Position numbers and translations under genes: made by a program. A stretch of 64,000 nt of DNA from Haliotis rufescens (taxonomy: Eukaryota): positions 49,724,001 through 49,788,000 of the forward strand of contig NW_025964361.1 of NCBI RefSeq assembly GCF_023055435.1, written 5' to 3'. Numbering within the stretch: position 1 is the stretch's first letter; the number at the start of each line of letters is the position of its first letter. This document shows, piece by piece, positions 8,601-42,102 of the stretch. The notes under the pieces were generated by a model. It was not told the DNA's origin, did no database searches, and saw nothing but the letters and a program-made list of their open reading frames with translations.

Positions 8601-9652
8601 ACCTAGAAGATATTCATATGTCATAAAATAAATATTATGTTTAATTATTATGAATGACAGCACAATGTACTAGGCCCTCGCTGTCATCAATGTCAGGAAT
8701 AAATATTGACTGTCAATTACGACTGTCTGTTATTAATCGAGTCTGGAACAAACAGTCCATTGATTGACATTATGAACATCGATCTACGCTTTTGGAATAC
8801 GATGTCAGCGAGCTTGATCACCCGATTCCGTTTGTATGCTCTTAGGACAAGCATGGCGATTTTAACCCGGATCTTCACGTGGTTCAATGACAATATTTAC
8901 TCATCATGAACTTTATTCCTTTAATATGTATCCGGGGCCAAGTATCACAGCAAATTAAGTGTCACGTGAGATCTGACCTTCTTATGCCTGACCAATCAAT
9001 TGAATAGGTTTTGTGGTCCATAAAAAATCTGTAGTCAGTATAGTTACAGGATCGTTGATCCACATAATATGAACAGTTTGTGATAGATTTGTGATTTCAA
9101 ACCTTTATTCTTATTTGTCAGAGTTATTGGCTCAAAAGTAGTGGAGTCACATTGGAATTTGATTCGGTATTGTGTGCAGTTAAAATTAGCGGAATCAGTG
9201 GTTGGTTATCCAATGTACAGGTTCAATGCCATCTGTCTGATATTTAGCTCATATTACATGTAAAAACCGTGAAAGGACAGCATTGCGACGCGAGTGAGGT
9301 TAAATCTCACATCAAACATCATCGACGTTCTTCTTGTGGAAGGTGGACCACTTAATAGGGCACATGGGAGGCAGGTAAGCAGCATTAGCGGGGGATTTCA
9401 GCTGGAGGGGTTAGGACGCTCGGAAGCTTGATTCCAAGAGATTCCAGGTTCCGGCCGATATAAAACACAGCTTCACAGTTTACAAAACGCTTCTGTTCAC
9501 ACATCGGCGTATGGGTACCCGGAAGGATGATATTGTCAACTGATTGATGTCTGCCATACATCGTTGGTTGTAGACTTATGTGGAAGCAAGAGAAGAAATT
9601 TGTATTCTCACTGACCCACTGATGCGTCGACAGAAGTAATAACTTTATTAAC

Positions 9653-10045
9653 AGTAGATAGAAAGTAATACCTTCCGGACAAAAGCATTCCTGTGGAGCG
9701 TGGAGTACCAACAAAAGCATTCCTGTGGAGCATAGAATTTCCAACAAATTCCTGTGGAGCATAGACTTTCCAACAAAAGCATTCCTGGGGAGCATAGAAT
9801 TTCCAACAAAAGCATTCCTGTTACCTTCCGGACAAAAGCAGTCCTGTGGAGCGTGGAATTTCCAACAAAAGCATTCCTGTGGAGCGTGGAATTTCCAACA
9901 AAAGCATTCCTGTGGAACGTGGAATTTCCAAGAAAAGCATTCCTGTGGAGCAGCATTTCTATGGAGCGTAGAGTAAAGAAACAAACAAAAGCATTCTTGT
10001 GAAGCATACCATAGAGGCCAGTCAATACCTTTCACACAATAGAAG
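9653..10045 (+). repeat. Left terminal inverted repeat with 33-bp tandem subrepeats
   Basis: Imperfect reverse complement of 19396-19679. Subrepeat unit CAAAAGCATTCCTGTGGAGCGTGGAATTTCCAA. Confidence 0.9.
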
Positions 10046-10270
10046 TTAACAATAACATTCCAGGATCAACGTTTCAACCACTAATAAAATGTATGTTGCG
10101 ACGAATACTCAGTAACCAATGAAACGCTAAAGGAAGTCAAGGTACACTAATGAAATTCAACTTTATAGAAGTTAAGCTGTGTTTAACTGTTGAAGCTTTC
10201 ATTCGAGCTTAAACAGCGATCTTGTCAACAAGACGAAATCTTCACGCCAGTATACATCTTGAATCTGATC

Positions 10271-10780
10271 ATGGGAACCCGAACAACTGACAAGTTTGTA
10301 TTTTTTTACACCAGAACTTCAGTGTTTAGTCAACATTTTTCTACTGAGATTGTTATCCAAGGAATAGCATTTAACTGTGCTGAGCAGTATTACATGTATA
10401 AAAAAGCTTGTATGTTCAGAGATTGGGAAACTGCGCATAAGATTTTAAAGTGTGTTTCTGCCACCGAACAAAAACGTTTAGGTAGAAGTGTGAGATGTTT
10501 TAATCAATGCCAATGGGATGCTGTGAGTTCCAATGTGGTGTATGCAGCATCTTCAGCTAAATTCACAAAGTCTGTTTTTCTGAAGAAACAACTGTTAGAC
10601 ACTTTTCCCAAGATCTTGGTACAAGCGAGTCCGTATGATCGTGTGTGGGGTGTGGGTCTATCACTGCATGACCCTAATATTCTTAATCCATCTAAATGGA
10701 AAGGCAGCAATAGACTTGGTCAGATCTTAATGATGGTTAGAAATGAAATAATGAACACAGAGCCAAGTGAAAACTTATGA
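10271..10780 (+). CDS. NADAR/YbiA-family (DUF1768) hydrolase, Maverick cargo gene
   Basis: Motifs FFY...FSQ, FNCAEQYYMYKKA, QKRLGR, LVQASPYDRVWGVG and KWKGSNRLGQILMMVR. ATG at 10271, 169 aa. The usual E of EASP reads Q here. Confidence 0.88.
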   Translation: MGTRTTDKFVFFYTRTSVFSQHFSTEIVIQGIAFNCAEQYYMYKKACMFRDWETAHKILKCVSATEQKRLGRSVRCFNQCQWDAVSSNVVYAASSAKFTKSVFLKKQLLDTFPKILVQASPYDRVWGVGLSLHDPNILNPSKWKGSNRLGQILMMVRNEIMNTEPSENL

Positions 10781-10909
10781 CTTTAAATGTGTTACAGTGA
10801 TGTAACTTGCTATTTTGAACAGAGGCAAGAAAACTACATTCTACTCGTGGAAGCAGGTCATGCGGATGCCACACACTCTAAATGAGCCAGTCATAACAAG
10901 ATTGCCTGA

Positions 10910-11374
10910 GTGGTTAGGGAAGAATGCGCGAAAGATGCAAAGAGAAAATTTAAAGACGCTGATGAAGTGGATATGGCTACAAAACTGAAACATGCAGAGG
11001 ATCTTCTCACGTTGAGTTACTCTTTAGAAGTGAGTAAAACGATCAGCCAGCTCGTGTGTGAAATGTGTATTCCTTGTCTGTTTAATGAAGAAGGTGATCC
11101 AATCTTTTTGGGAGAACATTCTTGTCGAATGACGGAGCAGGAGCAGGTGGATAAATACTTCAACGCGGCACTTGAGGATGCGGACAATGAACTGGTAATA
11201 GGAAAATGGATGAAACTTGTGACTGATGATCCAGATCTGTGCACAATGCCTGCTTTCCATTTAGTACCTTACCAGTGTAAGGACTATCGTGACAATACAT
11301 TCAAATCACCCGAATGGGTGAATGGTTTGAAGCAATGCGTTGTAAAAATGTTGAAGTTGCAAAAACGCTTGTAG
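10910..11374 (+). CDS. Hypothetical Maverick protein (154 aa, Cys/His cluster; start uncertain)
   Basis: Open in both copies and followed by AATAAA at ~11450. The ORF-track start is a GTG; a possible acceptor (TTTTGAACAG) lies at ~10822. Confidence 0.55.
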   Translation: MVREECAKDAKRKFKDADEVDMATKLKHAEDLLTLSYSLEVSKTISQLVCEMCIPCLFNEEGDPIFLGEHSCRMTEQEQVDKYFNAALEDADNELVIGKWMKLVTDDPDLCTMPAFHLVPYQCKDYRDNTFKSPEWVNGLKQCVVKMLKLQKRL

Positions 11375-11554
11375 ACTGTTTCCATGTCATATTATTCTAT
11401 CAGTACCAAATGAAACGTGTGTGTGTACTTTAGCAATGTCCATACTATGAATAAAACATAAATTATGCTTACATCTTTGTTTGTCTTCTTTTGATAGTTA
11501 TCAAATGGTTGTTCTTTAATAGGTGTCTGTTGTCAGAGCTTCTCTCATTTCAAC

Positions 11555-12693
11555 ATGAAGCCACAACAGAGAAAGGTGGTAACAAAAAAACAGGAGAAGA
11601 TGTTAGAAAGTTACTATTTTAACCCGCTTGAACCGGGGGCTTTTTATGGTCCTGAGAAGCTTTATAGCGTTCTGAAATTAGCTCGTCAACCAGATCTCAG
11701 ACTGAGCACTGTGAAACGTTTTCTGAACAAACAGGACGCCTACAGTTTACACAAGCCACCCAAACAGAGATTCAAGAGGCTGAGAGTTCGGGTGAATTCT
11801 ATAAATGAAATGTTTGATGTAGATTTGACCGACATGACTCGTTACAGCAAGGAGAATAATGATGTGCGCTATTTACTGGTGACTATTGACATACTGAGTA
11901 GGTTTGCTTTCGCCCTGCCTTTAACAAATAAGAGACCAGAGACAGTACTGAAAGCTTTCAAAGAAATAATTCAGGAACGAAATCCAATGGAAGTGCGTGT
12001 GGATGGTGGTTCAGAGTTTAAAGGAGTATTTAAAGATTTTTTTAGAAAAACACAATATCACTCTGACTGTTGCACATAACGAAAATATCAAAAGTAATTA
12101 TGTGGAACGATTCAACAGAACACTGAAATCACTTATTACGCATTACTTGACCCATAATAACACCAAGTATTATTTAGATGCACTGCCCAAGTTGATGGAC
12201 AATTATAATAACACCTTACATTCTTCTTTGCCCAACCTTTCTCCAGTTCAAGTCAAGAAGAAGAATGAACTGAAAGTATGGGAACATTTGTATGTGAAGC
12301 CGTTGTTACTTAAAAAAAGCTCCAAACACTCAAAGCTCAAAGTCATTTGTATTTAAAGTAGGGGATCTTGTTCGCATTCCATACCTCCAGAGACCTTTCA
12401 GTAAGGAACTTGATCTGAAGTGGACTCAGGAGCTGTTTAAGGTGGCTAGGCGATACAAGAGACAAGAGATAGCACAGTATCAGATAGAAGACTTTCCCGA
12501 TAAACTGATGGAAGGTACGTTTTATGCCAACGAGCTACAAAAGGTGGAGAAAAAGGAAAATGTCTTGTGGCAGGTAGAGAAGATTTTAAAGAGAAAACGT
12601 GTGAAAGGGAAGACCTACCTGTTAGTGAGGTGGTTGGGCTGGCAGAGTTCCTTTGATTCTTATGTGGAGGAAAGTGAACTGAAAGATATCTGA
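11555..12693 (+). pseudogene. Polinton-type retroviral-like (rve, DDE) integrase with C-terminal chromodomain; two frameshifts
   Basis: Motifs YYFNP..PGAF, FL.KQDAYSLHKP, FDVDLTDM, LVTIDILSRFAF, VDGGSEF, YVERFNRTLK, FKVGDLVRI, and chromodomain WQVEKIL...YLLVRWLGW..SFDSYV. Frameshifts at ~12040 and ~12335. Confidence 0.92.
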
Positions 12694-13120
12694 TGGAAAC
12701 GTAAATATTTAGCAAAAGCTCAGACTCCAAACACTCTTATTTTAACGAGAATACGCCTTATCATTTTCGTGTCAAACTAAATCAAAGGTTGAATTTTGAT
12801 GGATTCTGGGTTGTGTCTTTAACGGAGAATAATTTTGGTAAATTTGACATCACCCACCTGAATGATCCATATGTGGACGTGTTATGCAATCTGTGTGATA
12901 GTTCTTTGGCAGGTGAACAGCAATTGCCTTTATTGAGACGGCTTGATCTCAGACAAGGTCCTTACTATAGCTTTGCCCATGAATACAATATTCCGATTAA
13001 AGTCAAAGAATCTCCACACATAGAGGTGCGTATAAAGGCCAGTAACGGCATGTCACCCTCTTTCTAAAGGAAGTGACATATGTGACACTGCACTTGAGAC
13101 GGTATCCCTTCGTTGATTAA
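12693..13120 (+). pseudogene. Minor capsid protein (penton, single jelly roll; PX-like)
   Basis: Two-copy consensus METYIFIKSSDSK..YFNENTPYHFRVKL..RLNFDGFWVVSLTEI...LPLLRRL...YNIPIK...VTLHLRR matches the Polinton mCP pattern. Copy 1 has TAA at codon 4 and a frameshift at ~13061. Confidence 0.72.
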
Positions 13121-13122
13121 CC

Positions 13123-13444
13123 ATGGAGTCCACACCTTTGCATGTTCCCGATTATGTCAAATGGAACATCTGCCTTAGTGAATGGTAAACCACAGGTGAA
13201 AGTGATCCCGACACGACTTCAAGTGAAGACCGAAGAACCCAAGATCAAACTGGAAGTGACATCAGAGATGCAGAATATTGTTGAGAGAGGCAATGCCAAA
13301 GAAAAGCGACGGAAATCTTTAAAACGAGCTGCAGGTGATCGAATCACCACTTCAAAGAAGATCCGTCAGACAGATAACATTCCATCCAAGACCGCTAAGG
13401 TTCTCCAGTGTATCCCTGTTCGAGAAAACGACGTTTTCAGTTAA
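13123..13444 (+). pseudogene. Small basic Polinton-type protein (YVPD..KW..YF N-terminus), possibly a virion core protein
   Basis: Lys/Arg-rich and located between mCP and MCP. Copy 1 has a ~29-bp deletion relative to copy 2. Confidence 0.5.
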
Positions 13445-13446
13445 TC

Positions 13447-14749
13447 ATGTCACTATTGAATGATAAAGACTTTGAGGAACTGATACCGCCCTCTCTCAAT
13501 CTGTTTATTTTACCACCATACCAGACCAGCATCCATCAACATTATTTTGATGAAGTGCGACCACTCAGCCAAATCAATGATTCTTCACCGTTGGAATTTC
13601 AAGTAACGAATGCTGGAAGTGATTACATTGACCTGAACCGTACCCGCCTACATGTGAAGCTCAAGGTGAAACATGCAGATGGCACTGATCTTGTTGACAA
13701 GGAACATATTGTCCCTGTCAACTTGTTTCTGCAGGCCCTCTTTTCCCAGGTGTCAGTGTACCTGCAGAATCAGTTGGTATCTTCTACAAACAACCATTAT
13801 GCTTACAAGAGCATGATGAAAACTCTACTCAACAATGGAACAGAAGCTAAAACTTCACAGCTGTCATCTCAACGCTTCTACAAAGATGTGTCTGAATCCA
13901 ACAATGATGGCGAATCGACTGATCCCTACACTGGTCTCAATACAGGAGTGCAATCTCGTGGCGGTTTCATTAATACTAGTAAAGTCTTGACCATGTCGGG
14001 GCCATTGTATGAAGATATCTTTCACATGAACAGACATTTGGTCAATGGAGTGGATTTGACAATGAAGCTGTACCGCTCCTCGCCCCAGTTCTGTTTGATG
14101 AGTGGCAAAACAGGTCAAGATTACAAGGTGGAAATTCTGGATACCTACCTGAAGGTGTGTAAACTGAAAGTCAATCCAGCTCTTATTTTGGCACACAACA
14201 CCTTGTTTCAAGACAGCAATGCTTTGTATCCTTACACCAAAAGTGAGGGTCAAGGTTACAAGCATCCCCACCACTCAACTGACACATACCATTGACAATC
14301 TGTCGAATCCTATTGCTAATCGTTACATCGTAGGCTTTGTACTCAGCAACAGCTTGAATGGATCTTACACTGGTAACCCCTGCAACTTCCAATCTAGTAT
14401 GGTGAAAAACATCAGCCTGTACATCAATGGTGCCAGTGTCCCCGGACGTCCCATGCAGGCAGATGACGTTGAGTCCTATGTGCAGATGTTCGATGGGATG
14501 TGTCTGTGGAAAGAAAATACAGGAAACGGAATCACTCGGAGCGACATTTTGCTCGGGAGTGCCCTGTTCGTCTTCGACATTGATAAAGTATGCAGTGAAT
14601 CCGACTATCTGAATCTGTTGAAATCCGGTAGCACCCGACTAGAAATCGAGTTCAAATCCGCCCTCACCGAAACACACAGTTGTGTTGTTCTGAGTGAAAG
14701 AAATTCCCTCATCGAAATTGACAAGACCAGGAACGTGTTTGTGAAGTAA
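13447..14749 (+). pseudogene. Major capsid protein (double jelly roll, PY-like); +1 frameshift at ~14250
   Basis: Motifs SLNLF.LPPYQTSI, PLEFQV, DYIDL..TRLHVKLKV, PVNLFLQALFSQVSVYL, YAYK, GNP.NFQ, LFVFD and GSTRLEIEF...IEIDKTRNV. About 433 aa once repaired. Confidence 0.9.
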
Positions 14750-14754
14750 AAAAC

Positions 14755-15225
14755 ATGAAAGCCTCTGACCTTGCATGTGCTATTCAAAGCGACTCCATCT
14801 TAAAGGACCATGTCTTAGGTGTGTTTGCCAAAGATACCTCACCTGTGCTAACTAGAGTCATGCTTGCACGTGGAGTGGGTCTCATTGTCAATACTGAACC
14901 ATCTGGAAGACCGGGTCGTCACTGGGTGGCTATGTACTTCAAAGGAAATACAGGGGAACTCTTTGACAGTCTGGGTTAGCCAGTGAATTCCGTTTTTGAT
15001 TTGTACTTAAAAACCTATGTCAATCAATACCAGCACAACAGAAGACAATTACAGTCCTCATCATCCAACCTTTGTGGTCATTATTGTTTATATTATTTGT
15101 TGTATAAATGCAAAACAGATCTTACCCTTCAAACCCTTGTGCAGATATTCGATGTGCAAGTCCGTTTTAACAATGATGAGCATGTGTCAAAGTTTATCTG
15201 TAATTATTTTAGATATTGTTTGTAA
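14755..15225 (+). pseudogene. Adenain-like cysteine (maturation) protease; in-frame TAG at 14977-14979
   Basis: Motifs LGVFAKD, IVNT.PS..PG.HWVA, FDSLG and LQ...S.LCGHYC supply the His/Asp/Gln/Cys catalytic set. Confidence 0.9.
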
Positions 15226-15321
15226 TCTTGTCATACCTGTGTCATGTAACATACTACTGTACTTGTGTAACCCATTAAAAAAATGAAATAAAAAAATTAG
15301 AGTAGTCATTCGAGTTTGTTC

Positions 15322-15327
15322 TATAAA
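15322..15327 (+). promoter_or_regulatory. TATA box upstream of the ATPase gene
   Basis: TATAAA ~60 bp before ATG 15383 and just after the AATAAA that follows PRO. A 26-bp deletion removes it in copy 2. Confidence 0.45.
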
Positions 15328-15382
15328 TATAAGTAACTCAGCTGTATTGTCACAGTTGAATTATTGTGCTCAGAGTGAGATC

Positions 15383-16052
15383 ATGGAACGTAAGTGTCTC
15401 TTACCAATACAAACACCTACCAACATATCTGTGATTGGTGGATCTTCCTCAGGGAAAACAGTTTGGGTGAAAAGGTTGTTAGAGCAAGCTAATCTGATGT
15501 TTGACAAACCTCCCAACCTTATTGTGTACTGCTATGCCGTATGGCAAGACATCTACAGTGACATGCAGCAAAACATTTCTAACATTCTTTTTATGGATTC
15601 CCTTCCAACTGAGAATGATTTGAAAATGTGGTCTGAGCAATCTGAAAAGAACATGGTGTTGGTCATGGATGACATGATGATGAATATATGTAAAAGTCCA
15701 CTGATGTTAAATCTCTATCTACACTACATTGTCTCATCATTGGGGAATCAGTGTTATAAATATTCAACAGTCTGCTTATCCTAAGGGGGATTGTAACCGA
15801 ACTATTTCCTTGAATACACACTACTTCATTAAGCTATCTAACCCACGTTCTGCACATGAATATAAAATCTTGGCATCTCAAATATTTCCAGGACAAGTCA
15901 AATATTTTACTGAATCATTTCGTGATGCAGTGGAGGGAAAGAAATTTCAATATTTTATGATTGACGTATCACCCTATTCCGATCCTCAGTATGGGCGTCT
16001 GCGCAGTGGTGTCTTTCCAGATGAAGTATGTATTGTGTACCAACCCAAATAA
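15383..16052 (+). pseudogene. A32/FtsK-HerA-type DNA packaging ATPase; 4-bp insertion frameshift at ~15716
   Basis: Walker A GGSSSGKT, Walker B VLVMDD, then SHH..ISVINIQQ, RTISLNTHY and Y..IDVSP...RLR. Confidence 0.9.
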
Positions 16053-16127
16053 AAGCTACTGCTGAAAGTTATACCCACCAGTTGCCCGTATTACCAATGA
16101 ACAGATCAGTTGCTTACTGAGGTCATC

Positions 16128-16439
16128 ATGGATGTTTGCGGACGATTTGAAGATATTGCTAACGATTGTTCAGTGATTTCAACCAATGCTGAAGTGTATG
16201 GGGATAGCTTTTGTGAGAGATTAAAGGCCTTCACCAGTTGGCCCGTGCAAATGAAACAGTCTCTGAAGACTATGGCACAAGCAGGATTCATTTACACGGG
16301 TCAATCAGATAAAGTCTACTGTTTCATGTGTCGATTGCGTGTAAATAAATGGATGCCAGAAGATGAACCACTAACTGAACATTTCAGGTTATCACCTCAG
16401 TGTAGTTACATAAACATGATAGCTTCTAATACCAAATGA
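16128..16439 (+). CDS. Single-BIR inhibitor-of-apoptosis-like protein, Maverick cargo gene
   Basis: ERLKAFTSWP...MAQAGFIYTGQSDKVYCFMC...W...DEPLTEHFRLSPQC is a complete CX2C-X16-H-X6-C BIR. No RING domain. Open in both copies. Confidence 0.9.
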   Translation: MDVCGRFEDIANDCSVISTNAEVYGDSFCERLKAFTSWPVQMKQSLKTMAQAGFIYTGQSDKVYCFMCRLRVNKWMPEDEPLTEHFRLSPQCSYINMIASNTK

Positions 16440-16546
16440 GAGACATCGGCTATGGTGTATGAGGAATATTAGGGTCTAAGCATACATATATAAAAGTCAC
16501 AATAACCTAGTTAGATCATTTCACATCGTGATCTCTTCACATCAAT

Positions 16547-17012
16547 ATGGGTGATTTACTGGAAAAACATCTGTCTTTTCTTCAGACACTACTGCAGGCT
16601 AATGTGAAGCAGGGAAAAAGCTTTACTTCAATATGTTTCATGTGAACAAATGCATGCTATCAATACCATGATGTTAAACATTTTGAAAGGGAATATTCCG
16701 CTCTCACTGATGGATAAAACTCGCTTGCACCGTCATAGGTTTCACATTAGAACATTGGCTGCCAAAGAAGGTTTTACCAATCGGATTAAAAAGGAGGTGT
16801 TGATAAGACATCATTCGATCTTGCCTATTTGCATTGCTGCACTGTTAGATTACCTACATCATGAGCAGACCTATGGTTCTCCTGAACAGGAACACATACC
16901 AACGCCTGATAGACAACCAGGAAAAGGAGAAGACAGCGACTCAGGAACAACAACAACAACAGATAATGACAGTGACTCCGGACCGGGAGACGAGTCCTCT
17001 GAGACTGAATGA
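16547..17012 (+). pseudogene. Conserved Polinton-type small protein (LNILKGNIPL motif); frameshift at ~16615
   Basis: TATAAAA at 16489-16495 and ATG at 16547. The N-terminus is intact in copy 2 (40422). Confidence 0.55.
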
Positions 17013-17472
17013 GACCCCTGAAGAAATCACCCATGATGAAGCACAGATTAAAGCGAATACGACCTTGATTCTGGATCTACTTCTTAAGGATGTGTCATTA
17101 ACTAAAAAGATTGGCAAACTCACCAAACTATGGTAATTTATCAGGGATCAGATCAGAAACGCTCACTTCAGACTGAATGATCAGTTAGAAATTGTGTTAG
17201 ATAATGAGAATGTGTGGATCGGAACTAAGGTTATTGACCTCATTCGTTTTACTGTGATGCATCGTGGGGCTGTTCCTACAGGCTACCGTGACTTTCTCAA
17301 ACTTTTAAAAATGCTCCATGTACCAAAGCGGCTTTTGTATAAGCCAGATGCAAAGAAACAGAACGACAAAATAAAGAAGGCAAAATCATCTTTATATCTA
17401 AAACGACAAGCACAACATGGTGTGCCCGGTGCTAACACTACTGCAAAATTAAGAAAAGTAGAGTCTTTCTAA
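16861..17472 (+). pseudogene. Conserved Polinton-type hypothetical protein (~203 aa); TAA at 17134-17136
   Basis: MSRPMVLL...Y..L N-terminus and ..IGT.VIDL..P.GY..F.KLL C-terminus. The stop is TAC in copy 2. AATAAA at ~17531. Confidence 0.55.
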
Positions 17473-17557
17473 CTGTACATGCACATTGAATTCATGACAT
17501 GTATTCTATGTAACTTTCTGATTGTAAAACAATAAAATAATGCTAACACATGCGTCT

Positions 17558-17866
17558 TTAATTATTACTATCTTCCATGTTCATGAGGACTCTGAGCTGC
17601 ATCTCAAGTCTTTCTTTTCTGTCATCACAGAAGAAATGCCTATGCATATAATCAGAGTCACTGTAACGCACAGTGTGCTGGTCCTGAAACTCTAGCCCAA
17701 GGCTTACCCTCTGTTGCTTGGGTTTTTCCAAGATGGTATGAAGGGGCAGCTCATTCACTGCACAATCAAAGTATTGAGTAATACACTCGTCACAAACTAT
17801 ACATTTTGGAGCTCTATAGAAATATAAGTTCAAACTTAAGTGCAAACAGCTGCACACAATGAACAT
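17558..17866 (-). CDS. Hypothetical Cys-containing protein or terminal exon (C..C..C)
   Basis: Open and nearly identical in both copies. An acceptor-like TATTTCTATAG precedes APKC, so it may be a spliced exon. Confidence 0.4.
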   Translation of the reverse strand: MFIVCSCLHLSLNLYFYRAPKCIVCDECITQYFDCAVNELPLHTILEKPKQQRVSLGLEFQDQHTVRYSDSDYMHRHFFCDDRKERLEMQLRVLMNMEDSNN

Positions 17867-18111
17867 GAGTGGTGTGGCTGCTATTCAAAACAGTTTCAGA
17901 TTGCTTCAAGACAGATGTATCAAGCGGGTGTATAATAGGGTAGTACTAAGAACTGCTGAATCACCTTGACCGAGTACACAAGCTATACAATATTTTTGAG
18001 AAAATGTTTACCATGGGATGGTACTGAAAACGTGACACTTTAAAAGCACATGTGTTCCATTATGAAAGACTACGTTAAAGGGATACACTTAATGAAAGAG
18101 CCGTATGGAGA

Positions 18112-18328
18112 GGTGGTGTGGTGAAATTGGGTTTAACGTCGCGTCCAAGATTATTGCACTTATATAGCGACGTGCATGCACGTGTGTGTGTGTGTATGTG
18201 TGTGTGTGTGGCTGCTTGTACTAGTCCGGACTGATGCCGATTTATAGTGCTAGCTCACTGAGATACCATGCCGCAGTTTAACATGAATACCCCACTCAGA
18301 CACAGTATACTGACTCCGAGCCGACCAG
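18112..18328 (-). mobile_element. Truncated SINE-like insertion with (GT)n inside the Maverick (copy 2 at ~41994-42219)
   Basis: GGTG-repeat tail plus TTGGGTTTAACGTC, like the other SINE tails. The internal TTTATAGTGCTAGCTCACTG...ATACTGACTCCGAGCCGACCAG resembles a mollusc SINE core as I recall it (not searched). Confidence 0.6.
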
Positions 18329-19395
18329 ATTTACACCGAACAAGCACGTCACACACTCCAATTTCGCTATGCATCTCACTGTGTTTTCTAACATAAAAGC
18401 ATATTTTTAATCAGAATGTGTGTATGTTTTATGTTTCAATTCACAGTTATTCGCTCTCTTGGTCTATCAATGTGATATGAGCCACTAGTGTGATACGAGT
18501 TACCTCCCTTGGATCACGAGGGCAGGCCGCTCGCTTCACCCGCCTTTCGGTGTATGTATTCATGCAAGCCAGCGTTCATTGTTTCTTCACTGTCAATAGT
18601 GTATTACCTCCCTTACACCGGTAAGCCCTATCGTTTACAGGTTTCTGGTGTAGCCGAACGGTTTGACCATTGTTTTTCCAGCTAAGTTTACTACATGATG
18701 ATATATAAGAAGAAATTAAATCCAGCCATGTACAATTGATGGAATAAATATGATTAAACCAAATATGAACTGAGCGAATGGTTAATTCAAACGGAATATA
18801 TGGAGGAATGATTAATGAAACAGTGTTGTACAGTCTTAAGGTAAGTTCACTTATTTTCATTATTACTATTACATCAATTAGTTATATGTCATAAAGCAGA
18901 AAACATACGAATTACACATCTGCAGATGGGTATAATGTATACTTTCTACTCAAGTTCTAATATAATGGCGAAAACAAGTAACAGTGATATTATCTAGTTG
19001 GTGATCGTCTAAAAGCAACATTTAACCCTTAATGTTACGTTAGCACACTGAAACAGATAAAAAGTTAAAGAGTGATAGAAATGTTAATAGATAAAGGTTA
19101 ATAGATAAAGGTTAATGAATACCGCTCTGAACAATAACATAATATTTTAACACTTAGTGAAACGTGAATGAAGTAGAGAAAAATGTTTATAAATGAATTG
19201 ACATCGGTGAAAGGGTGAACAGGTTCAGCGGCTAAAACCCACACACGAATAGATTCACTCTTGCGTGTAAAGAGTGGGTGAGAGAGAGCTACCCCTAGTG
19301 TATTGATACTAATGTGCGGTGACATAGTTACATGTTTGAACAGAGCGATTATATACAGAGCCAGCCTTACTGCTAGTCTCCTTTAGCAAAATTTG

Positions 19396-19679
19396 CTTCT
19401 ATTGTGTGATTTGACTGGCCTCTGTGGTATGCTCCACAAGAATGCTTTTGTTTGTTTCTTTACTCTACGCTCCATAGGAATGCTTTTGTTTGTTTCTTTA
19501 CTCTACGCTCCACAGAAATGCTTTTGTTAGAAATTCCACGCTCCACAGGAATGCTTTTGATGGAAATTCCATGCTCCACAGGAATTTGTTGAAATTCTAT
19601 GCTCCACAGGAATGCTTTTGTTGGTACTCCACGCTCCACAGGAATGCTTTTGTCCGGAAGGTACTACTTTCTATCTACT
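19396..19679 (-). repeat. Right terminal inverted repeat
   Basis: Inverted match to 9653-10045 with fewer 33-bp subrepeats. Confidence 0.9.
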
Positions 19680-20906
19680 ATTAACCACAAGGTGTAAGGG
19701 ACAGATGGTGAAATGATCAATGTGTTCACTTCATTTAAATTGATGAGTGCATATCTGAAAGGTCAGGTCGGTACTTTGTTTTCATTTATAAAAAAATCAG
19801 AGACTTCTTCGTGACTTACACTTCATTACACCGAACAAGCACGTCACACACTTCAATTTCGCTATGCATTCTGTATTAGTCATATTAACTGCAGACACAC
19901 TACACAATCGAACTATATGCATGTGCTATGTACAGATACAGTTATGTCAACAGGTATAACGGTATAAGGTATAAAGGTCCATTGGTCATGGAAGTTCTAT
20001 GAGCACTGCTACGTGTCTATTCCCAAATTGAAACGATAGGCTAATCCAGAAATCTGAATCTAAAACATCTTAGTGTGAAACCAACAAACAACTAACAAGT
20101 GGTATTCAATCAACGAATGAATTATACTATTAACTTAGTTAACAAATCAATATAAATTACAGCACAGCAATTACAATGGCAGAAAACAAAAGAGTGGTTG
20201 TACAATATTCAATGGCAATAACTAATACGATGGCAGTGGTCAGAATCAAATAGAAAATTACAGTGGTGATGGAAAAAGTCAGTGATACTAATATATATTC
20301 ACCCAGCGGCCACGGTGGTCAAGTTTCCAAGATGGGCGAGCCAGGGAATCGGGAATAATGAGCGATCCTCACATGAAAGCTGGTGCGAGACGAGATGAAA
20401 TGCGTGCGAGACGAAATATGTGAGAGATCCAAAAGTGTGAGAGATGTGTAAACACGCTACTGTCCCCTTATGAACTGTCCAAATCGGTTCCTAAACACCA
20501 CAGAATATTTCATACCAGGTCACGGTAAACCGGAAGTTTACACACAAAACTAGTATCTAAATATAGTAGCTTCCTGACGACTGCTTAGATGAAATAGTAC
20601 TACATTCCTGAGGACTATCACTTCCGAAATATATTGTAATTAGCGGCTACCGAATCTCTACAGAAACGAGGTAAAACCACTGTTAAACAACAAAATAAAC
20701 TGCAATATAACAGCGTGATGAACCAAACTACATAAGATTTGTAAGATGTAAATGATGCAAGCACCGTTTCGTGTCCCGACATACTCAGGTAACCGCGACA
20801 CTGCTGTCAGTGTAAAAGCCGCTTTGAAAAAAGAATTTTTTGGCAGTGTTAATGAATGAACAAGACTGAATGAGCAGATTCCCCGAACAGAACATTTTGG
20901 ATAAAG

Positions 20907-33550: not shown

Positions 33551-33943
33551 AGTAGATAGAAAGTAATACCTTCCGGACAAAAGCATTCCTGTGGAGCGTG
33601 GAGTACCAACAAAAGCATTCCTGTGGAGCATAGAATTTCCAACAAATTCCTGTGGAGCATAGACTTTCCAACAAAAGCATTCCTGGGGAGCATAGAATTT
33701 CCAACAAAAGCATTCCTGTTACCTTCCGGACAAAAGCATTCCTGTGGAGCGTGGAATTTCCAACAAAAGCATTCCTGTGGAGCGTGGAATTTCCAACAAA
33801 AGCATTCCTGTTGAGCGTCGAATTTCCAACAAAAGCATTCCTGTGGAGCAGCATTTCTATGGAGCGTAGAGTAAAAAAACAAACAAAAGCATTCTTGTGA
33901 AGCATACCACAGTGGCCAGTCAATACCTTTCACACAATAGAAG
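33551..33943 (+). repeat. Left TIR, copy 2
   Basis: Inverted match to 43296-43579; 33-bp subrepeats. Confidence 0.9.
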
Positions 33944-34168
33944 TTAACAATAACATTCCAGGATCAACGTTTCAACCACTAATAAAATGTATGTTGCGAC
34001 GATTACTCAGTAACCAATGAAACGCTAAAGGAAGTCAAAGTACACTAATGAAATTCAACTTTATAGAAGTTAAGCAGTGTTTAACTGTTGAAGCTTTCAT
34101 TCGAGCTTAAACAGCGATCTTGTCAACAAGACGAAATCTTCACGCCAGTATACATCTTGAATCTGATC

Positions 34169-34654
34169 ATGGGAACCCGAACAACTGACAAGTTTGTATT
34201 TTTTTACACCAGAACTTCAGTGTTTAGTCAACATTTTTCTACTGAGATTGTTATCCAAGGAATAGCATTTAACTGTGCTGAGCAGTATTACATGTATAAA
34301 AAAGCTTGTATGTTCAGAGATTGGGAAACTGCGCATACGATTTTAAAGTGTGTTTCTGCCACCGAACAAAAACGTTTAGGTAGAAGTGTGAGATGTTTTA
34401 ATCAACGCCAATGGGATGCTGTGAGTTCCAGTGTGGTGTATGCAGCGTCTTCAGCTAAATTCACACCGTCTGTTTTTCTGAAGAAACAACTGTTAGACAC
34501 GAGTCCGTATGATCGTGTGTGGGGTGTGGGTCTATCACTGCATGACCCTAATATTCTTAATCCATCTAAATGGAAAGGCAGTAATAGACTTGGTCAGATC
34601 TTAATGATGGTTAGAAATGAAATAATGAACACAGAGCCAAGTGAAAACTTATGA
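34169..34654 (+). CDS. NADAR/YbiA-family protein, copy 2, with a 24-bp in-frame deletion (FPKILVQA); probably inactive
   Basis: Same motifs as 10271-10780; the deletion removes the strand leading into SPYD..WG. Confidence 0.8.
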   Translation: MGTRTTDKFVFFYTRTSVFSQHFSTEIVIQGIAFNCAEQYYMYKKACMFRDWETAHTILKCVSATEQKRLGRSVRCFNQRQWDAVSSSVVYAASSAKFTPSVFLKKQLLDTSPYDRVWGVGLSLHDPNILNPSKWKGSNRLGQILMMVRNEIMNTEPSENL

Positions 34655-34783
34655 CTTTAAATGTGTTACAGTGATGTAACTTGCTATTTTGAACAGAGGC
34701 AAGAAAACTACATTCTACTCGTGGAAGCAGGTCATGCGGATGCCACACACTCTAAATGAGCCAGTCATAACAAGATCACCTGA

Positions 34784-35248
34784 GTGGTTAGGGAAGAATG
34801 CGCGAAAGATACAAAGAGAAAATTTAAAGACGCTGATAAAGTGGATATGGCTACAAAACTGAAACATGCAGAGGATCTTCTCACGTTGAGTTACTCTTTA
34901 GAAGTGAGTAAAACGATCAGCCAGCTCGTGTGTGTAATGTGTATTCCTTGTCTGTTTAATGAAGAAGGTGATCCAATCTTTTTGGGAGAACATTCTTGTC
35001 GCATGACGGAGCAGGAGCAGGTGGATAAATACTTCAACGCGGCACTTGAGGATGCGGACAATGAACTGGTAATAGGAAAATGGATGAAACTTGTGACTGA
35101 TGCTCCAGATCTGTGCACAATGGCTGCTTTCCATTTAGTACCTTACCAGTGTAAGGACTATCGTGACAATACATTCAAATCACCCGAATGGGTGAATGGT
35201 TTGAAGCAATGCGTTGTAAAAATGTTGAAGTTGCAAAAACGCTTGTAG
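34784..35248 (+). CDS. Hypothetical Maverick protein, copy 2
   Basis: Paralog of 10910-11374. Confidence 0.55.
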   Translation: MVREECAKDTKRKFKDADKVDMATKLKHAEDLLTLSYSLEVSKTISQLVCVMCIPCLFNEEGDPIFLGEHSCRMTEQEQVDKYFNAALEDADNELVIGKWMKLVTDAPDLCTMAAFHLVPYQCKDYRDNTFKSPEWVNGLKQCVVKMLKLQKRL

Positions 35249-35428
35249 ACTGTTTCCATGTCATATTATTCTATCAGTACCAAATGAAATGTGTGTGTGT
35301 ACGTTAGCAATGTCCATACTATGAATAAAACATAAATTATGCTTACATCTTTGTTTGTCTTCTTTTGATAGTTATCAAATGGTTGTTCTTTAATAGGTGT
35401 CTGTTGTCGGAGCTTCTCTCATTTCAAC

Positions 35429-36564
35429 ATGAAGCCACAACAGAGAAAGGTGGTAACAAAGAAACAGGAGAAGATGTTAGAAAGTTACTATTTTAACCCG
35501 CTTGAACCGTGGGCTTTTTATGGTCCTGAGAAACTTCATAGCGTTCTGAAATAAGCTCGTCAGCCAGATCTCAGACCGAGCACTGTGAAACGTTTTCTGA
35601 ACAAACAGGACGCCTACAGTTTACACAAGCCACCCAAACAGAGATTCAAGAGGCTGAGAGTTCGGGTGAATTCTATAAATGAAATGTTTGATGTAGATTT
35701 GACCGACATGACTCGTTACAGCAAGGAGAATAATGGTGTGCGCTATTTACTGGTGGCTATTGACATACTGAGTAGGTTTGCTTTCGCCCTGCCTTTAACA
35801 AATAAGAGACAGAGACAATACTGAAAGCTTTCAAAGAAATAATTCAGGAACGAAATCCAATGGAATTGCGTGTGGATGGTGGTTCAGAGTTTAAAGGAGT
35901 ATTTAAAGATTTTTTAGAAAAACACAATATCACTCTGACTGTTGCACATAACGAAAATATCAAAAGTAATTATGTGGAACGATTCAACAGAACACTGAAA
36001 TCACTTATTACGCGTTACTTGACCCGTAATAACACCAAGTATTATTTAGATGCACTGCCCAAATTGATGGACAATTATAATAACACCTTACATTCTTCTT
36101 TGCCCAACCTTTCTCCAGTTCAAGTCAAGAAGAAGAATGAACTGAAAGTATGGGAACATTTGTATGTGAAGCCGTTGTTACTTAAAAAAAGCTCCAAGCA
36201 CAACAGGTCAAAGTCATTTGTATTTAAAGTAGGGGACCTTGTTCGCATTCCATACCTCCGGAGACCTTTCAGTAAGGAACTTGATCTGAAGTGGACTCAG
36301 GAGCTGTTTAAGGTGGCTAGGCGATACAAGAGACAAGAGATAGCACAGTATAAGATCCAAGACTTTCCCGATAAACTGATAGAAGGTATGTTTTATGCCA
36401 ACGAGCTACAAAAGGTGGAGAAAAAGGAAACTGTCTTGTGGCAGGTAGAGAAGATTTTAAAGAGAAAACGTGTGAAAGGGAAGACCTATCTGTTAGTGAG
36501 GTGGTTGGGCTGGCAGAGTTCCTTCGATTCTTATGTGGAGGAAAGTGAACTAAAAGATATCTGA
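35429..36564 (+). pseudogene. Integrase-chromodomain, copy 2 (TAA at ~35552, frameshift at ~35810)
   Basis: Same motifs as copy 1, with lesions at different positions. Confidence 0.92.
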
Positions 36565-36992
36565 TTGAAAGGTACATATTTATCAAAAACTCAGACTCCA
36601 AACAATCTTATTTTAACGAGAATACGCCTTATCATTTTCGTGTCAAACTATATCAAAGGTTGATTTTTGATGGATTCTGGGTTGTGTCTTTAACGGAGAT
36701 TAATTTTGGTAAACTTGACATCACCCACCTGAATGATCCATATGTGAACGTGTTATGCAATCTGTGTGATAGTTCTTTGGCAGGTGAACAGCAGTTGCCT
36801 TTATTGAGACGGCTTGATCTCAGACAAGGTCCTTACTATAGCTTTGCCCATGATTACAATATTCCGATTAAAGTCAAAGAATCTCCACACATAGAGGTGC
36901 GTATAAAGGCCAGTAACGGCATGTCACCCTCATTTCTAAAGGAAGTGACATATGTGACAATGCACTTGAGACGGTATCCCTTCGTTGATTAA
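36564..36992 (+). pseudogene. Minor capsid protein, copy 2 (start ATG mutated to ATT, frame otherwise open)
   Basis: Paralog of 12693-13120. Confidence 0.72.
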
Positions 36993-36994
36993 CC

Positions 36995-37324
36995 ATGGAG
37001 TCCACACCTTTGTATGTTCCCGATTATGTCAAATGGACCCACTATTTCAAGAAACACATGAAAGGAACATCTGCCTTAGTGAATGGTAAACCAAAGGTGA
37101 AAGTGATCCCGACACGACTTCAAGTGAAGACCGAAGAACCCAAGATCAAACTGGAAGTGACATCAGAGATGCAGAATATTGTTGAGAGAGCCAATGCCAA
37201 AGAAAAGCGACGGAAATCTTTAAAACGAGCTGCAGGTGATCGAATCACCACTTCAAAGAAGATCCGTCAGACAGATAACATTCCATCCAAGACCGCTAAG
37301 GTTCTCCAGTGTATCCCTGTTTGA
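36995..37324 (+). CDS. Small basic Polinton-type protein, copy 2 (C-terminus shortened by CGA>TGA)
   Basis: MESTPLYVPDYVKWTHYFKKH...; Lys/Arg-rich. Confidence 0.55.
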   Translation: MESTPLYVPDYVKWTHYFKKHMKGTSALVNGKPKVKVIPTRLQVKTEEPKIKLEVTSEMQNIVERANAKEKRRKSLKRAAGDRITTSKKIRQTDNIPSKTAKVLQCIPV

Positions 37325-37347
37325 GAAAACAACGTTTTCAGTTAATC

Positions 37348-38650
37348 ATGTCACTATTGAATGATAAAGACTTTGAGGAACTGATACCGCCCTCTCTCAA
37401 TCTGTTTATTTTATCACCATACGAGACCAGCATCCATCAACATTATTTTGATGAAGTGCGACCACTCAGCCAAATCAATGATTCTTCACCGTTGGAATTT
37501 CAAGTAACGAATGCTGGAAGTGATTACATTGACCTGAACCGTACCCGCCTACATGTGAAGCTCAAGGTGAAACATGCAGATGGCACTGATCTTGTTGACA
37601 AGGAACATATTGTCCCTGTCAACTTGTTTCTGCAGGCCCTCTTTTCCCAGGTGTCAGTGTACCTGCAGAATCAGTTGGTATCTTCTACAAACAACCATTA
37701 TGCTTACAAGAGCTTGATAAAAACTCTACTCAACTATGGAACAGAAGCAAAAACTTCACAGCTGTCATCTCAACTCTTCTACAAAGATGTGTCTGAATCC
37801 AACAATGATGTGGAATCGACTGATCCCTACACTGGTCTCAATACAGGAGTGCAATCTCGTGGCGGTTTCATTAATACTAGTAAAGTCTTGACCATGTCGG
37901 GGCCATTGTATGAAGATATCTTTCACATGAACAGACATTTGGTCAATGGAGTGGATTTGACAATGAAGCTGTACCGCTCCTCGCCCCAGTTCTGTTTGAT
38001 GAGTGGCAAAACAGGTCAAGATTACAAGGTGGAAATTCTGGATACCTACCTGAAGGTGTGTAAACTGAAAGTCAATCCAGCTCTTATTTTGGCACACAAC
38101 ACCTTGTTTCAAGACAGCAATGCTTTGTATCCTTACACCAAAAGTGAGGGTCAAGGTGACAAGCATCCCCACCACTCAACTGACACATACCATTGACAAT
38201 CTGTCGAATCCTATTGCTAATCGTTACATCGTAGGCTTTGTACTCAGCAACAGCTTGAATGGATCTTACACTGGTAACCCCTACAACTTCCAATCTAGTA
38301 TGGTGAAAAACATCAGCCTGTACATCAATGGTGCCAGTGTCCCCGGACGCCCCATGCAGGCAGATGACGTTGAGTCCTATGTGCAGATGTTCGATGGGAT
38401 GTGTCTGTGGAAAGAAAATACAGGAAACGGAATCACTCGGAGCGACTTTTTGCTCGGGAGTGCCCTGTTCGTCTTCGACATTGATAAAGTATGCAGTGAA
38501 TCCGACTATCTGAATCTGTTGAAATCCGGTAGCACCCGACTAGAAATCGAGTTCAAATCCGCCCTCACCGAAACACTCAGTTGTGTTGTTCTGAGTGAAA
38601 GAAGTTCCCTCATCGAAATTGACAAGACCAGGAACGTGTTTGTGAAGTAA
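37348..38650 (+). pseudogene. Major capsid protein, copy 2 (same frameshift as copy 1, ~38150)
   Basis: Paralog of 13447-14749. Confidence 0.9.
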
Positions 38651-38655
38651 AAAAC

Positions 38656-39126
38656 ATGAAAGCCTCTGACCTTGCATGTGCTATTCAAAGCGACTCCATC
38701 TTAAAGTACCATGTCTTAGGTGTGTTTGCCAAAGATACCTCACCTGTGCTAACTAGAGTCATGCTTGCACGTGGAGTGGGTCTCATTGTCAATACTGAAC
38801 CATCTGGAAGACCGGGTCGTCACTGGGTGGCTATGTACTTCAAAGGAAATACAGGGGAACTGTTTGACAGTCTGGGTTAGCCAGTGAATTCCGTTTTTGA
38901 TTTGTACTTAAAAACCTATGTCAATCAATACCAGCACAACGGAAGACAGTTACAGTCCTCATCATCCAACCTTTGTGGTCATTATTGTTTATATTATTTG
39001 TTGTATAAATGCAAAACAGATCTTACCCTTCAAACCCTTGTGCAGATATTTGATGTGCAAGTCCGTTTTAACAATGATGAGCATGTGTCAAAGTTTATCT
39101 GTAATTATTTTAGATATTGTTTGTAA
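38656..39126 (+). pseudogene. Adenain-like protease, copy 2 (same TAG, 38878-38880)
   Basis: Paralog of 14755-15225. Confidence 0.9.
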
Positions 39127-39257
39127 TCTTGTCATACCTGTGTCATGTAATATACTACTGTACTTGTGTAACCCATTAAAAAAATGAAATAAAAAAATTA
39201 GAGTAGTCATTCGAGTTTGTATTGTCACAGTTGAATTATTGTGCTCAGAGTGAGATC

Positions 39258-39927
39258 ATGGAACGTAAGTGTCTCTTACCAATACAAACACCTACCAACA
39301 TATCTGTGATTGGTGGATCTTCCTCAGGGAAAACAGTTTGGGTGAAAAGGTTGTTAGAGCAAGCTAATCTGATGTTTGACAAACCTCCCAACCTTATTGT
39401 GTACTGCTATGCCGTATGGCAAGACATCTACAGTGACATGCAGCAAAACATTTCTAACATTCTTTTTATGGATTCCCTTCCAACTGAGAATGATTTGAAA
39501 ATGTGGTCTGAGCAATCTGAAAAGAACATGGTGTTGGTCATGGATGACTTGATGATGAATATATGTAAAAGTCCACTGATGTTAAATCTCTATCTATACT
39601 ACATTGTCTCATCATTGGGGAATCAGTGTTATAAATATTCAACAGTCTGCTTATCCTAAGGGGGATTGTAACCGAACTATTTCCTTGAATACACACTACT
39701 TCATTTTGCTATCTAACCTACGTTCTGCACATGAATATAAAATCTTGGCATCTCAAATATTTCCAGGACAAGTCAAATATTTTACTGAATCATTTCGTGA
39801 TGCAGTGGAGGGAAAGAAATTTCAATATTTAATGATTGACGTATCACCCTATTCCGATCCTCAGTATGGGCGTCTGCGCAGTGGTGTCTTTCCAGATGAA
39901 GTATGTATTGTGTACCAACCCAAATAA
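39258..39927 (+). pseudogene. Packaging ATPase, copy 2 (same frameshift)
   Basis: Walker A GGSSSGKT and Walker B VLVMDD. Confidence 0.9.
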
Positions 39928-40002
39928 AAGCTACTGCTGAAAGTTATACCCACCAGTTGCCCGTATTACCAATGAACAGATCAGTTGCTGAATGAGGTCA
40001 TC

Positions 40003-40314
40003 ATGGATGTTTGCGGACGATTTAAAGATATTGCTAACGATTGTTCAGTGATTTCAACCAATGCTGAAGTGTATGGGGATAGATTTTGTGAGAGATTAAA
40101 GTCCTTCGCCAGTTGGCCCGTGCAAATGAAACAGTCTCTGAAGACTATGGCAAAAGCAGGATTCATTTACACGGGTCAATCAGATAAAGTCTACTGTTTC
40201 ATGTGTCGATTGCGTGTAAATAAATGGATGCCAGAAGATGAACCACTAACTGAACATTTCAGGTTATCACCTCAGTGTAGTTACATAAACATGATAGCTT
40301 CTAATACCAAATGA
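40003..40314 (+). CDS. Single-BIR IAP-like protein, copy 2
   Basis: Intact BIR zinc ligands. Confidence 0.9.
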   Translation: MDVCGRFKDIANDCSVISTNAEVYGDRFCERLKSFASWPVQMKQSLKTMAKAGFIYTGQSDKVYCFMCRLRVNKWMPEDEPLTEHFRLSPQCSYINMIASNTK

Positions 40315-40421
40315 GAGACATCGGCTATGGTGTATGAGGAATATTAGGGTCTAAGCATACATATATAAAAGTCACAATAACCTAGTTAGATCATTTCACA
40401 TCGTGATCTCTTCACATCAAT

Positions 40422-41351
40422 ATGGGTGATTTACTGGAAAAATATCTGTCTTTTCTTCAGACACTACTGCAGGCTAATGTGAAGCAGGGAAAAGCTTTAC
40501 TTCAATATGTGTCATGTGAACAAATGCATGCTATTAATACCATGATGTTAAACATTTTGAAAGGGAATATTCCGCTCTCACTGATGGATAAAACTCGCTT
40601 GCACCGTCATAGGTTTCACATTAGAACAGTGGCTGCCAAAGAAGGTTTTCCCAATCGGATTAAAAAGGAGGTGTTGATAAGACATCCTTCGATCTTGCCT
40701 ATTTGCATTGCTGCACTGTTAGATTACCTACATCATGAGCAGACCTATGGTTCTCCTGAACAGGAACACATACCAACGCCTGATAGACAACCAGGAAAAG
40801 GAGAAAACAGCGACTCAGGAACAACACAACAACAACAACAGATAATGACAGTGACTCCGGATCGGGAGACGAGTCCTCTGAGACTGAATGAGACCCCTGA
40901 AGAAATCACCCATGATGAAGCACAGATTAAAGCAAATGCGAACTTGAATCTGGATCTACTTCTTAAGGATGTGTCATTAACTAAAAAGATTGGCAAACTC
41001 ACCAAACTATGGTACTTTATCAGGGATCAGATCAGAAACGCTCACTTCAGACTGAATGATCAGTTAGAAATTGTGTTAGATAATGAGAATGTGTGGATCG
41101 GAACTAACGTTATTGACCTCATTCGTTTTACTGTGATGCATCGTGGGGCTGTTCCTACAGGCTACCGCGACTTTCTCAAACTTTTAAAAATGCTCCATGT
41201 ACCAAAGCGGCTTTTGTATAAGCCAGATGCAAAGAAACAGAACGACAAAATAAAGAAGGCAAAATCATCTTTATATCTAAAACGACAAGCACAACATGGT
41301 GTGCCCGGTGCTAACACTACTGCAAAATTAAGAAAAGTAGAGTCTTTCTAA
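40422..41351 (+). pseudogene. Two overlapping Polinton-type hypothetical genes (ATG 40422 and ATG 40735) fused by a 1-bp deletion at ~40825
   Basis: Comparison with copy 1 (ACAACAACAAC vs ACAACACAAC) shows that the 309-aa ORF joins two reading frames. Confidence 0.6.
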
Positions 41352-41439
41352 CTGTACATGCACATTCATTCATTCATGACATGTATTCTATGTAACTTTC
41401 TGATTGTAAAGCAATAAAATAATGCTAACACATGCGTCT

Positions 41440-41748
41440 TTAATTATTACTATCTTCCATGTTCATGAGGACTCTGAGCTGCATCTCAAGTCTTTCTTTT
41501 CTGTCATCACAGAAGAAATGCCTATGCATATAATCAGAGTCACTGTAACGCACAGTGTGCTGGTCCTGAAACTCTAGCCCAAGGCTTACCCTCTGTTGCT
41601 TGGGTTTTTCCAAGATGGTATGAAGGGGCAGCTCATTCACTGCACAATCAAAGTATTGAGTAATACACTCGTCACAAACTGTACATTTTGGAGCTCTATA
41701 GAAATATAAGTTCAAACTTAAGTGCAAACAGCTGCACACAATGAACAT
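41440..41748 (-). CDS. Hypothetical Cys-containing protein or exon, copy 2
   Basis: Paralog of 17558-17866 (one amino-acid difference). Confidence 0.4.
   Translation of the reverse strand: MFIVCSCLHLSLNLYFYRAPKCTVCDECITQYFDCAVNELPLHTILEKPKQQRVSLGLEFQDQHTVRYSDSDYMHRHFFCDDRKERLEMQLRVLMNMEDSNN

Positions 41749-42064: not shown

Positions 42065-42102
<38 letters not shown>

Follow-up and report, generated by a model that had tools for sequence, protein, structure and literature searches.

An intron-nested NADAR gene as optional cargo of Maverick/Polinton elements in the abalone Haliotis rufescens

NADAR proteins have been described in several settings that resemble the one reported here. The stand-alone, glutamate-type NADARs (8BAU, SCO5665 and the Amphimedon protein) consist of a single domain with the same motifs as the Maverick NADAR of this study. 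The Maverick NADAR differs from them in being nested in an intron on a mobile element and in not keeping the equivalents of D86 and R93. Phage AdfN, a T4 gp30.3-type protein that counters DarTG1, is likewise an orphan viral NADAR without a cognate transferase nearby, and it represents a proven case of counter-defence by an orphan NADAR (PMC11825919). It differs in that the bacterial host has a known writer, DarT1, and in that the gp30.3-type proteins have His where the Maverick NADAR has Glu (PMC11543638). NADARs are also on record from phages, from NCLDVs and from RNA viruses of invertebrates (PMC9503650), including the oyster nidovirus PONV1 (PMC12377751), which agrees with the statement of the original prediction that they occur in phages and some large viruses. 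The NCLDV and RNA-virus NADARs are likewise viral, have invertebrate hosts including molluscs, and are proposed to counter ADP-ribosylation, in the case of the animal RNA viruses that of the host (PMC9503650); they differ in that they belong to large DNA viruses or to RNA-virus polyproteins. The adintovirus/Maverick elements surveyed for accessory genes by Starrett et al. (PMC8502044) have the core genes, termini and target-site duplication (TSD) in common with the present element, and IAP cargo was already noted there. Finally, the cellular multi-NADAR proteins of Haliotis, LOC124129589 and LOC124138828, carry the same domain in the same genome, where intron-containing genes in a cluster on G000:C112 encode 3 and 7 domains in tandem, respectively; these domains group with mollusc cellular NADARs and not with the Maverick clade.

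No report of a NADAR on a Polinton was found in the accessible literature, including the available text of PMC9503650, PMC8502044, PMC11131425 and bioRxiv 10.64898/2026.10.13.758929, a body of text that takes in neither Repbase, nor papers behind a subscription, nor the supplements of bioRxiv preprints. The terms NADAR, YbiA, PF08719 and DUF1768 are absent from the supplement of PMC8502044 and "ADP" from its main text; NADAR-type terms are likewise absent from the supplement text of PMC10748475 and PMC11131425. The viral NADAR survey PMC9503650 contains no mention of polinton, adintovirus or Preplasmiviricota. In a single-sequence scan of IMG/VR for NADAR on polinton-like viruses, the count was 0 of 13, and in an alignment scan of IMG/VR, 80 of 166 NADAR loci were kept (39-48% identical), none of which matched the seven Maverick proteins. 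The metagenome scan for NADAR gave 4 of 107, which were short fragments only. The enzyme is of a kind already known from viruses; what is new is its place on a Maverick, for which no earlier Polinton report was found, and the intron-nested layout.

The window, i.e. the whole stretch of 64,000 nucleotides of Haliotis rufescens DNA that was analysed, contains two copies of the gene, as listed in Table 1. The 169-residue product of copy 1 matches the NADAR profile PF08719 with an E-value of 3.6e-43 and 148 bits in the profile search, where the cut-off is 35.1 bits; the corresponding scores are 123 bits for copy 2 and 153 bits for the NADAR of a sister element. The copy 1 product also aligns with the Phytophthora NADAR of PDB 8BAU (E 1.8e-11) and with E. 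coli YbiA, 2B3W. The assignment to the NADAR family in the original prediction is borne out by the profile match and these alignments.

Table 1. Features of the window (strand "." where none applies).
Feature	Position	Strand	Remarks
Left TSD ATTAAC, copy 1	9647..9652	.	Same hexamer at 19680-19685
Maverick/Polinton copy 1	9653..19679	+	10,027 bp; internal deletion that removes the polymerase gene; non-autonomous
Left TIR with internal tandem repeats	9653..10045	+	Partner about 19396-19679
NADAR copy 1 ORF	10271..10780	+	Open; Gln at catalytic position 118; predicted inactive
529-nt GT..AG intron, ORF2 transcript	10294..10822	+	Donor and acceptor present in window copy
ORF2	10823..11374	+	Conserved Maverick gene, invariant Cys/His; frameshifted in window copy
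rve integrase with C-terminal chromodomain	11555..12690	+	Frameshifted
Probable minor capsid protein	12693..13117	+	Broken; no library match; label presumed from position and size
Major capsid protein, double jelly-roll-like	13447..14749	+	Frameshifted
Adenain-like cysteine protease	14755..15246	+	Two stops; PF00770 weak, E 0.017, on sister protein
A32-like packaging ATPase	15347..16049	+	PF04665; frameshifted
BIR (inhibitor-of-apoptosis) domain gene	16128..16439	+	PF00653 E 3.1e-22; open
Right TSD ATTAAC	19680..19685	.	Pairs with 9647..9652
Maverick copy 2	33551..43579	+	Same TSD, 97.3% identical to copy 1
NADAR copy 2	34169..34654	+	In-frame 24-nt deletion takes out residues 112-119
Empty site, single ATTAAC, third older repeat unit	60080..60085	.	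Left flank matches to 60068, right from 60080

The NADAR gene is the first ATG-initiated ORF 3' of the left terminal inverted repeat (TIR) of an element that begins with AGTAG, ends with CTACT and is flanked on both sides by the 6-bp TSD. We take AG..CT ends, TIRs and a 6-bp TSD to be hallmarks of Maverick/Polinton elements. Judged by its termini and genes, the element at 9653-19679 is a Maverick/Polinton, and the TIRs, the TSD and the core gene set downstream confirm the Maverick context that had been proposed for the NADAR. The capsid assignment is based on a sister protein, which matches at 0.98 Atlas clusters with PF21738 in 24-30% of their members. The polymerase ORF is missing from both window copies, and ORF2, integrase, major capsid protein, protease and ATPase carry frameshifts or stops in both. 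The deletion junction of copy 1 lies near 17793, where longer sisters hold about 5 kb of extra sequence. In some sisters, the left TIR is about 260 bp longer than in the window copy (L033:1271-1536 and the equivalents in three other sisters).

The two window elements have the same TSD, and their flanks (96.5% identical) are nearly as similar as the elements themselves. The shared TSD, the duplicated flanks and the empty site in the third repeat unit therefore indicate one insertion that was later duplicated with a unit of about 23.9 kb; two independent insertions in the window are ruled out by the common TSD and the duplicated flanks. The tandem segmental duplication comprises window positions 794-21569 and 24556-45465, with the third unit from about 47400. 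The unit further includes a gene for a Toll-like receptor (LRR and TIR domains), which is open at 26091-28589 with 832 aa and split or partial in its remaining copies, and a 67-bp tandem array is present in each unit.

Position 118 of the NADAR aligns with E125 of 8BAU, and the catalytic Glu is lost from both window copies. Both the Gln in copy 1 and the deletion in copy 2 at this residue, which had been read from the sequence in the original prediction, are seen in the alignment. According to the alignment, 9 of the 12 ADP-ribose-binding or catalytic residues named for the Phytophthora NADAR are kept in copy 1. In SCO5665 of S. coelicolor, replacement of the equivalent Glu by Gln abolished activity (PMC12945103). 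Because position 118 is lost and the corresponding Gln variant of SCO5665 is dead, both window NADARs are predicted to be catalytically inactive, which would make them dead relics of a single insertion. The suspected decay thus holds for both window copies and does not extend to the family: in a 247-row alignment, which left out rows of less than 130 aa (less than 125 aa for database proteins), Glu118 is present in 18 of 20 Maverick rows, both exceptions coming from the window, and in 203 of the 227 other rows. A family-wide loss of the catalytic residue is ruled out by the same count.

A search of the abalone genome with its own sequences gave at least 115 NADAR matches. Among the matches listed, 22 sit in one cluster, the remainder merge into 73 loci, and ORF2 follows within 2 kb downstream at 50 of these 73 non-host NADAR loci. 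Counted from ORF2, NADAR lies upstream at 50 of 107 loci and is absent upstream at 57. The close sisters of the window element (91-95% amino acid identity) are separate insertions with differing flanks and TSDs, and further NADAR-bearing subfamilies were found at 77%, 56-59% and 46-54% identity, with ORF2 next to the NADAR in most of those examined. The possibility of a one-off capture absent from other family members, which the original prediction had left open, does not apply, as 50 NADAR loci precede ORF2 and the subfamilies extend down to 46% identity. In 3 of 10 sisters examined, all seven scored frames are open, including a polymerase-like ORF of 1,388 aa, which we presume from its motifs to encode a polymerase B and for which Pfam, PHROGs and the PDB gave no polymerase match. 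This ORF (L034:5-4171, minus strand) carries C2H2 zinc fingers at its N-terminus as well as an insert that resembles endonuclease VII.

In the intact Maverick copies, the equivalents of E43, K50, E125, D130 and W133 of the Phytophthora enzyme are present at positions 38, 45, 118, 123 and 126. The first-helix residues E38 and K45 (E43 and K50 in the Phytophthora protein) occur in 19 and 18 of the 20 Maverick rows, respectively. From a reading of the alignment, the sister protein keeps 10 of the 12 residues listed for ADP-ribose binding and catalysis in the Phytophthora NADAR (PMC11543638), the two not kept being D86 and R93.

The presence of the gene varies among families. Some Maverick families lack a NADAR ahead of ORF2, and the gene has been lost from one young copy. 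In a young family, the slot is filled by an ORF of about 170 aa (L197, L199, L200, L201 and L212) that is PC4-like, presumably with tandem PC4 domains. In a subfamily of near-identical copies, the NADAR is cut to its first 60 or so residues (three copies: L080, L204 and L206). In these three copies, the BIR gene is shifted to the front, and the start codon and splice donor are kept despite the NADAR cut. NADAR-bearing elements are dispersed across the trees of ORF2, integrase and capsid protein, which indicates repeated loss or module exchange. The NADAR is a genuine but optional accessory cargo of several abalone Maverick lineages.

Purifying selection acts on the NADAR between subfamilies. 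For subfamilies A and B, pairwise Nei-Gojobori values are dN 0.123 and dS 0.783 over 165 codons, giving a dN/dS of 0.16, where ORF2 and the integrase of the same pair give 0.21 and 0.24, respectively. Against the 56-59% subfamily, pS is 0.74-0.80, which is near or at saturation, and pN is 0.25-0.27. Within the 56-59% subfamily, three pairs of old inserted copies have dN/dS values of 0.91-1.41. The ratio of 0.16 between subfamilies and of about 1 among inserted copies thus indicates that the NADAR is kept during replication and decays once inserted. As the decay of inserted copies is neutral, the selection is on the mobile lineage and not on the integrated loci.

The origin of the gene was approached by phylogeny. 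In an IQ-TREE analysis of a 76-row subset of 436 domains, in which the bootstrap had not fully converged and the backbone was unresolved, six Maverick rows form a clade with P0058 and P0059, two proteins without a name, at a support of 99/99, and all mollusc cellular NADARs fall in a separate 31-row group with support of 94/93. A forced clade of Maverick and abalone-host NADARs is not rejected (AU p 0.33). In the FastTree analysis, the Maverick clade falls within sequences from animals, a weakly supported placement. The phylogeny suggested in the original prediction for placing the NADAR as host, bacterial or viral thus yields a clade of its own, and the donor is not placed. P0194, which belongs to the same cluster as P0059 and is longer, shows a weak resemblance to PC4 at its N-terminus (E 0.094), a hint that it too may come from a Maverick-type element. 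In abalone, the cellular NADARs have expanded into the host cluster (G000:C112, about 19.97-20.08 Mb, L071-L077), whose intron-containing genes encode proteins as long as 4,851 aa. Each protein has 3 to 7 NADAR domains in tandem, and several of the domains have no catalytic Glu.

The NADAR and ORF2 have a start codon in common, and NADAR codons 9 to stop lie inside the 529-nt intron of ORF2. The donor GT follows base 2 of NADAR codon 8, where its G is synonymous, in all 24 copies that could be aligned, the starts of three further copies being unalignable; since the 24 copies are related, they amount to about eight lineages rather than 24 separate events. Subfamilies A and B have a clear AG acceptor in phase, and the third subfamily has a probable one. 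The RefSeq models of ORF2 from both Haliotis species start with the first seven residues of the NADAR and then run on into ORF2 (P0204, P0205, P0209 and P0213). Proteins named Haliotis rufescens and H. cracherodii match the ORF2 of a sister copy at 100% identity, which marks the host as an abalone. Because the RefSeq models found splice the NADAR out, standard annotation overlooks it.

Assembled contigs, from runs that are RNA by guess, show both forms. A GT..AG joint that skips exactly 529 nt (L033 1783 to 2313) occurs in one of three contig runs (X2), on one contig with 30 letters on the short side. Unspliced contigs, which could be DNA or pre-mRNA, cross the NADAR in all three runs, with no listed change in the catalytic codon and with 2, 1 and 7 differences. 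The contig depth is 10-52 over NADAR/ORF2 and 0-5.5 over integrase to ATPase in all three runs, which were chosen with the NADAR/ORF2 stretch, and such depth cannot rank expression. The small-RNA run X22 has 28 reads on a sister copy. The NADAR cargo is apparently transcribed; unspliced RNA would be translated into the NADAR, and splicing out of the 529-nt intron would yield ORF2. With such a nested layout, Mavericks could gain cargo and need no additional promoter. The contig end common to the runs (2961) was considered as a poly(A) site, and this was dropped, as the reads are cut at a repeat there. The ORF2 acceptor is also joined to other upstream sequence, with a loose end at L033:2311 (X1) and other N-termini in P0206 and P0207; these alternative N-termini possibly result from splicing from flanking host exons.

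With regard to function, intact Maverick NADARs probably cleave the N-glycosidic bond that links ADP-ribose to guanine, and possibly to cytosine, in DNA or RNA. We infer this activity because 10 of the 12 active-site residues are kept and because all tested NADAR subtypes, a sponge enzyme included, remove ADP-ribose from guanine in DNA and RNA in vitro (PMC11125620, PMC11833690, PMC12945103). Weighing the readings considered, counter-defence against base ADP-ribosylation, which the original prediction had raised, appears to be the likeliest role, a suggestion that we make tentatively and regard as close to, and short of, an even call. In the proposed process, a host or microbial transferase would mark single-stranded replication intermediates or RNA of the element with ADP-ribose, and the Maverick NADAR would erase these marks from the nucleic acid of the element, as phage AdfN does. 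During Maverick replication, single-stranded DNA is presumably exposed, and such DNA is the substrate of DarT1- and pierisin-type transferases. The element also carries a second host-interaction gene, BIR.

To our knowledge, no guanine-N2 transferase has been described in abalone. Genome searches with PF22596 and PF01375 gave no candidate of the pierisin/CARP-1 type; the controls were silent too, hence these searches are uninformative. CARP-1 homologues are mainly reported from bivalves (PMC12945103). The abalone genome has 50 PARP-like matches, which are not an obvious target because a NADAR failed to remove the mark that human PARP15 places on guanine N1 (bioRxiv 10.64898/2026.03.31.715305). 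The dispensability of the NADAR, which is absent at 57 of 107 ORF2 loci and reduced to a stub of about 60 residues in one subfamily, argues against counter-defence.

A more specific form of counter-defence, possible although somewhat unlikely, is that an undescribed abalone defence ADP-ribosylates guanine or cytosine bases of invading nucleic acid, and that an early transcript retaining the intron turns on the Maverick eraser. If so, the pair would be an animal counterpart of the conflict between phage AdfN and DarTG1, and the transcribed Maverick NADAR would offer a ready-made tool with which to look for endogenous base ADP-ribosylation in animals. An eraser kept under selection in a lineage of small animal DNA viruses would point to base-marking pressure in gastropod cells, for which we know of no enzyme. 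Endogenous base ADP-ribosylation in eukaryotes has been named as still undiscovered (PMC12945103).

The NADAR might instead act on small molecules or RNA-processing by-products, such as soluble ADP-ribose derivatives or N-glycosides of the riboflavin-pathway type, or in RNA splicing. A presumably PC4-like, nucleic-acid-binding gene in the same slot of other Maverick families would be in line with such a role, which we consider unlikely. NADARs take part in the clean-up of riboflavin intermediates, and C. elegans SNA-3 in trans-splicing (PMC11125620); furthermore, Iyer et al. suggested soluble ADP-ribose derivatives or RNA-processing by-products as substrates of viral NADARs (PMC9503650). However, removal of guanine ADP-ribose is common to every subtype tested in vitro (PMC11125620, PMC12945103), and the sole viral case tested, AdfN, is one of counter-defence (PMC11825919).

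A benefit to the host or the infected cell, where the NADAR would remove the marks of guanine transferases from bacteria or other viruses and thereby favour carriage of the element, is quite improbable. A protective role has been proposed for metazoan NADARs (PMC12945103), and the contig depth along the element peaks over NADAR/ORF2 in all three runs, which were chosen with that stretch; nevertheless, inserted copies decay neutrally with a dN/dS of about 1, and the abalone already owns a multi-domain NADAR cluster.

We give very little weight to a toxin-antidote cargo, in which the NADAR would be the antidote to a transferase of the same element and ORF2 the candidate toxin. The cargo of nematode Mavericks reportedly has a toxin-antidote role. 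The coupling of NADAR and ORF2 by a common start codon and alternative splicing would suit such a pair, as would the antitoxin function of NADARs in the DarT1 and YarT systems (PMC11543638, PMC11125620) and the presence of cargo genes on nematode Mavericks (Widen et al. 2023, cited in PMC11131425). On the other hand, no NADAR lies upstream of ORF2 at 57 of 107 loci, the listed fold matches of the ORF2 model include no transferase, and a profile-library search found no transferase match among the 15 ORFs of the sister element. A neutral passenger, i.e. a captured host NADAR cDNA without function, would be consistent with the roughly 32-60% identity per exon to the host cluster, with the joint host-Maverick clade that is not rejected (AU p 0.33) and with the absence or truncation of the NADAR in several families, but this highly improbable reading is largely refuted by the dN/dS of 0.16 between subfamilies, and is further opposed by active-site residues kept despite near-saturated synonymous sites and by the distinct, well-supported Maverick NADAR clade.

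The ORF2 protein has no Pfam or Atlas match, and its PHROG match is weak at best (E 0.062). The model of ORF2 based on an alignment (pLDDT 81) consists of a small alpha/beta part and a helical Cys/His domain; Foldseek gave no match to it at E<=0.001 (best VIA Z 5.1, rmsd 6.7 over 122 residues). An ORF of 243 aa beside the polymerase gene (L033:9194-9925, minus strand) is a distant paralogue of ORF2 with 15-25% identity, and the two have a Cys-x2-Cys...His-x-Cys motif in common.
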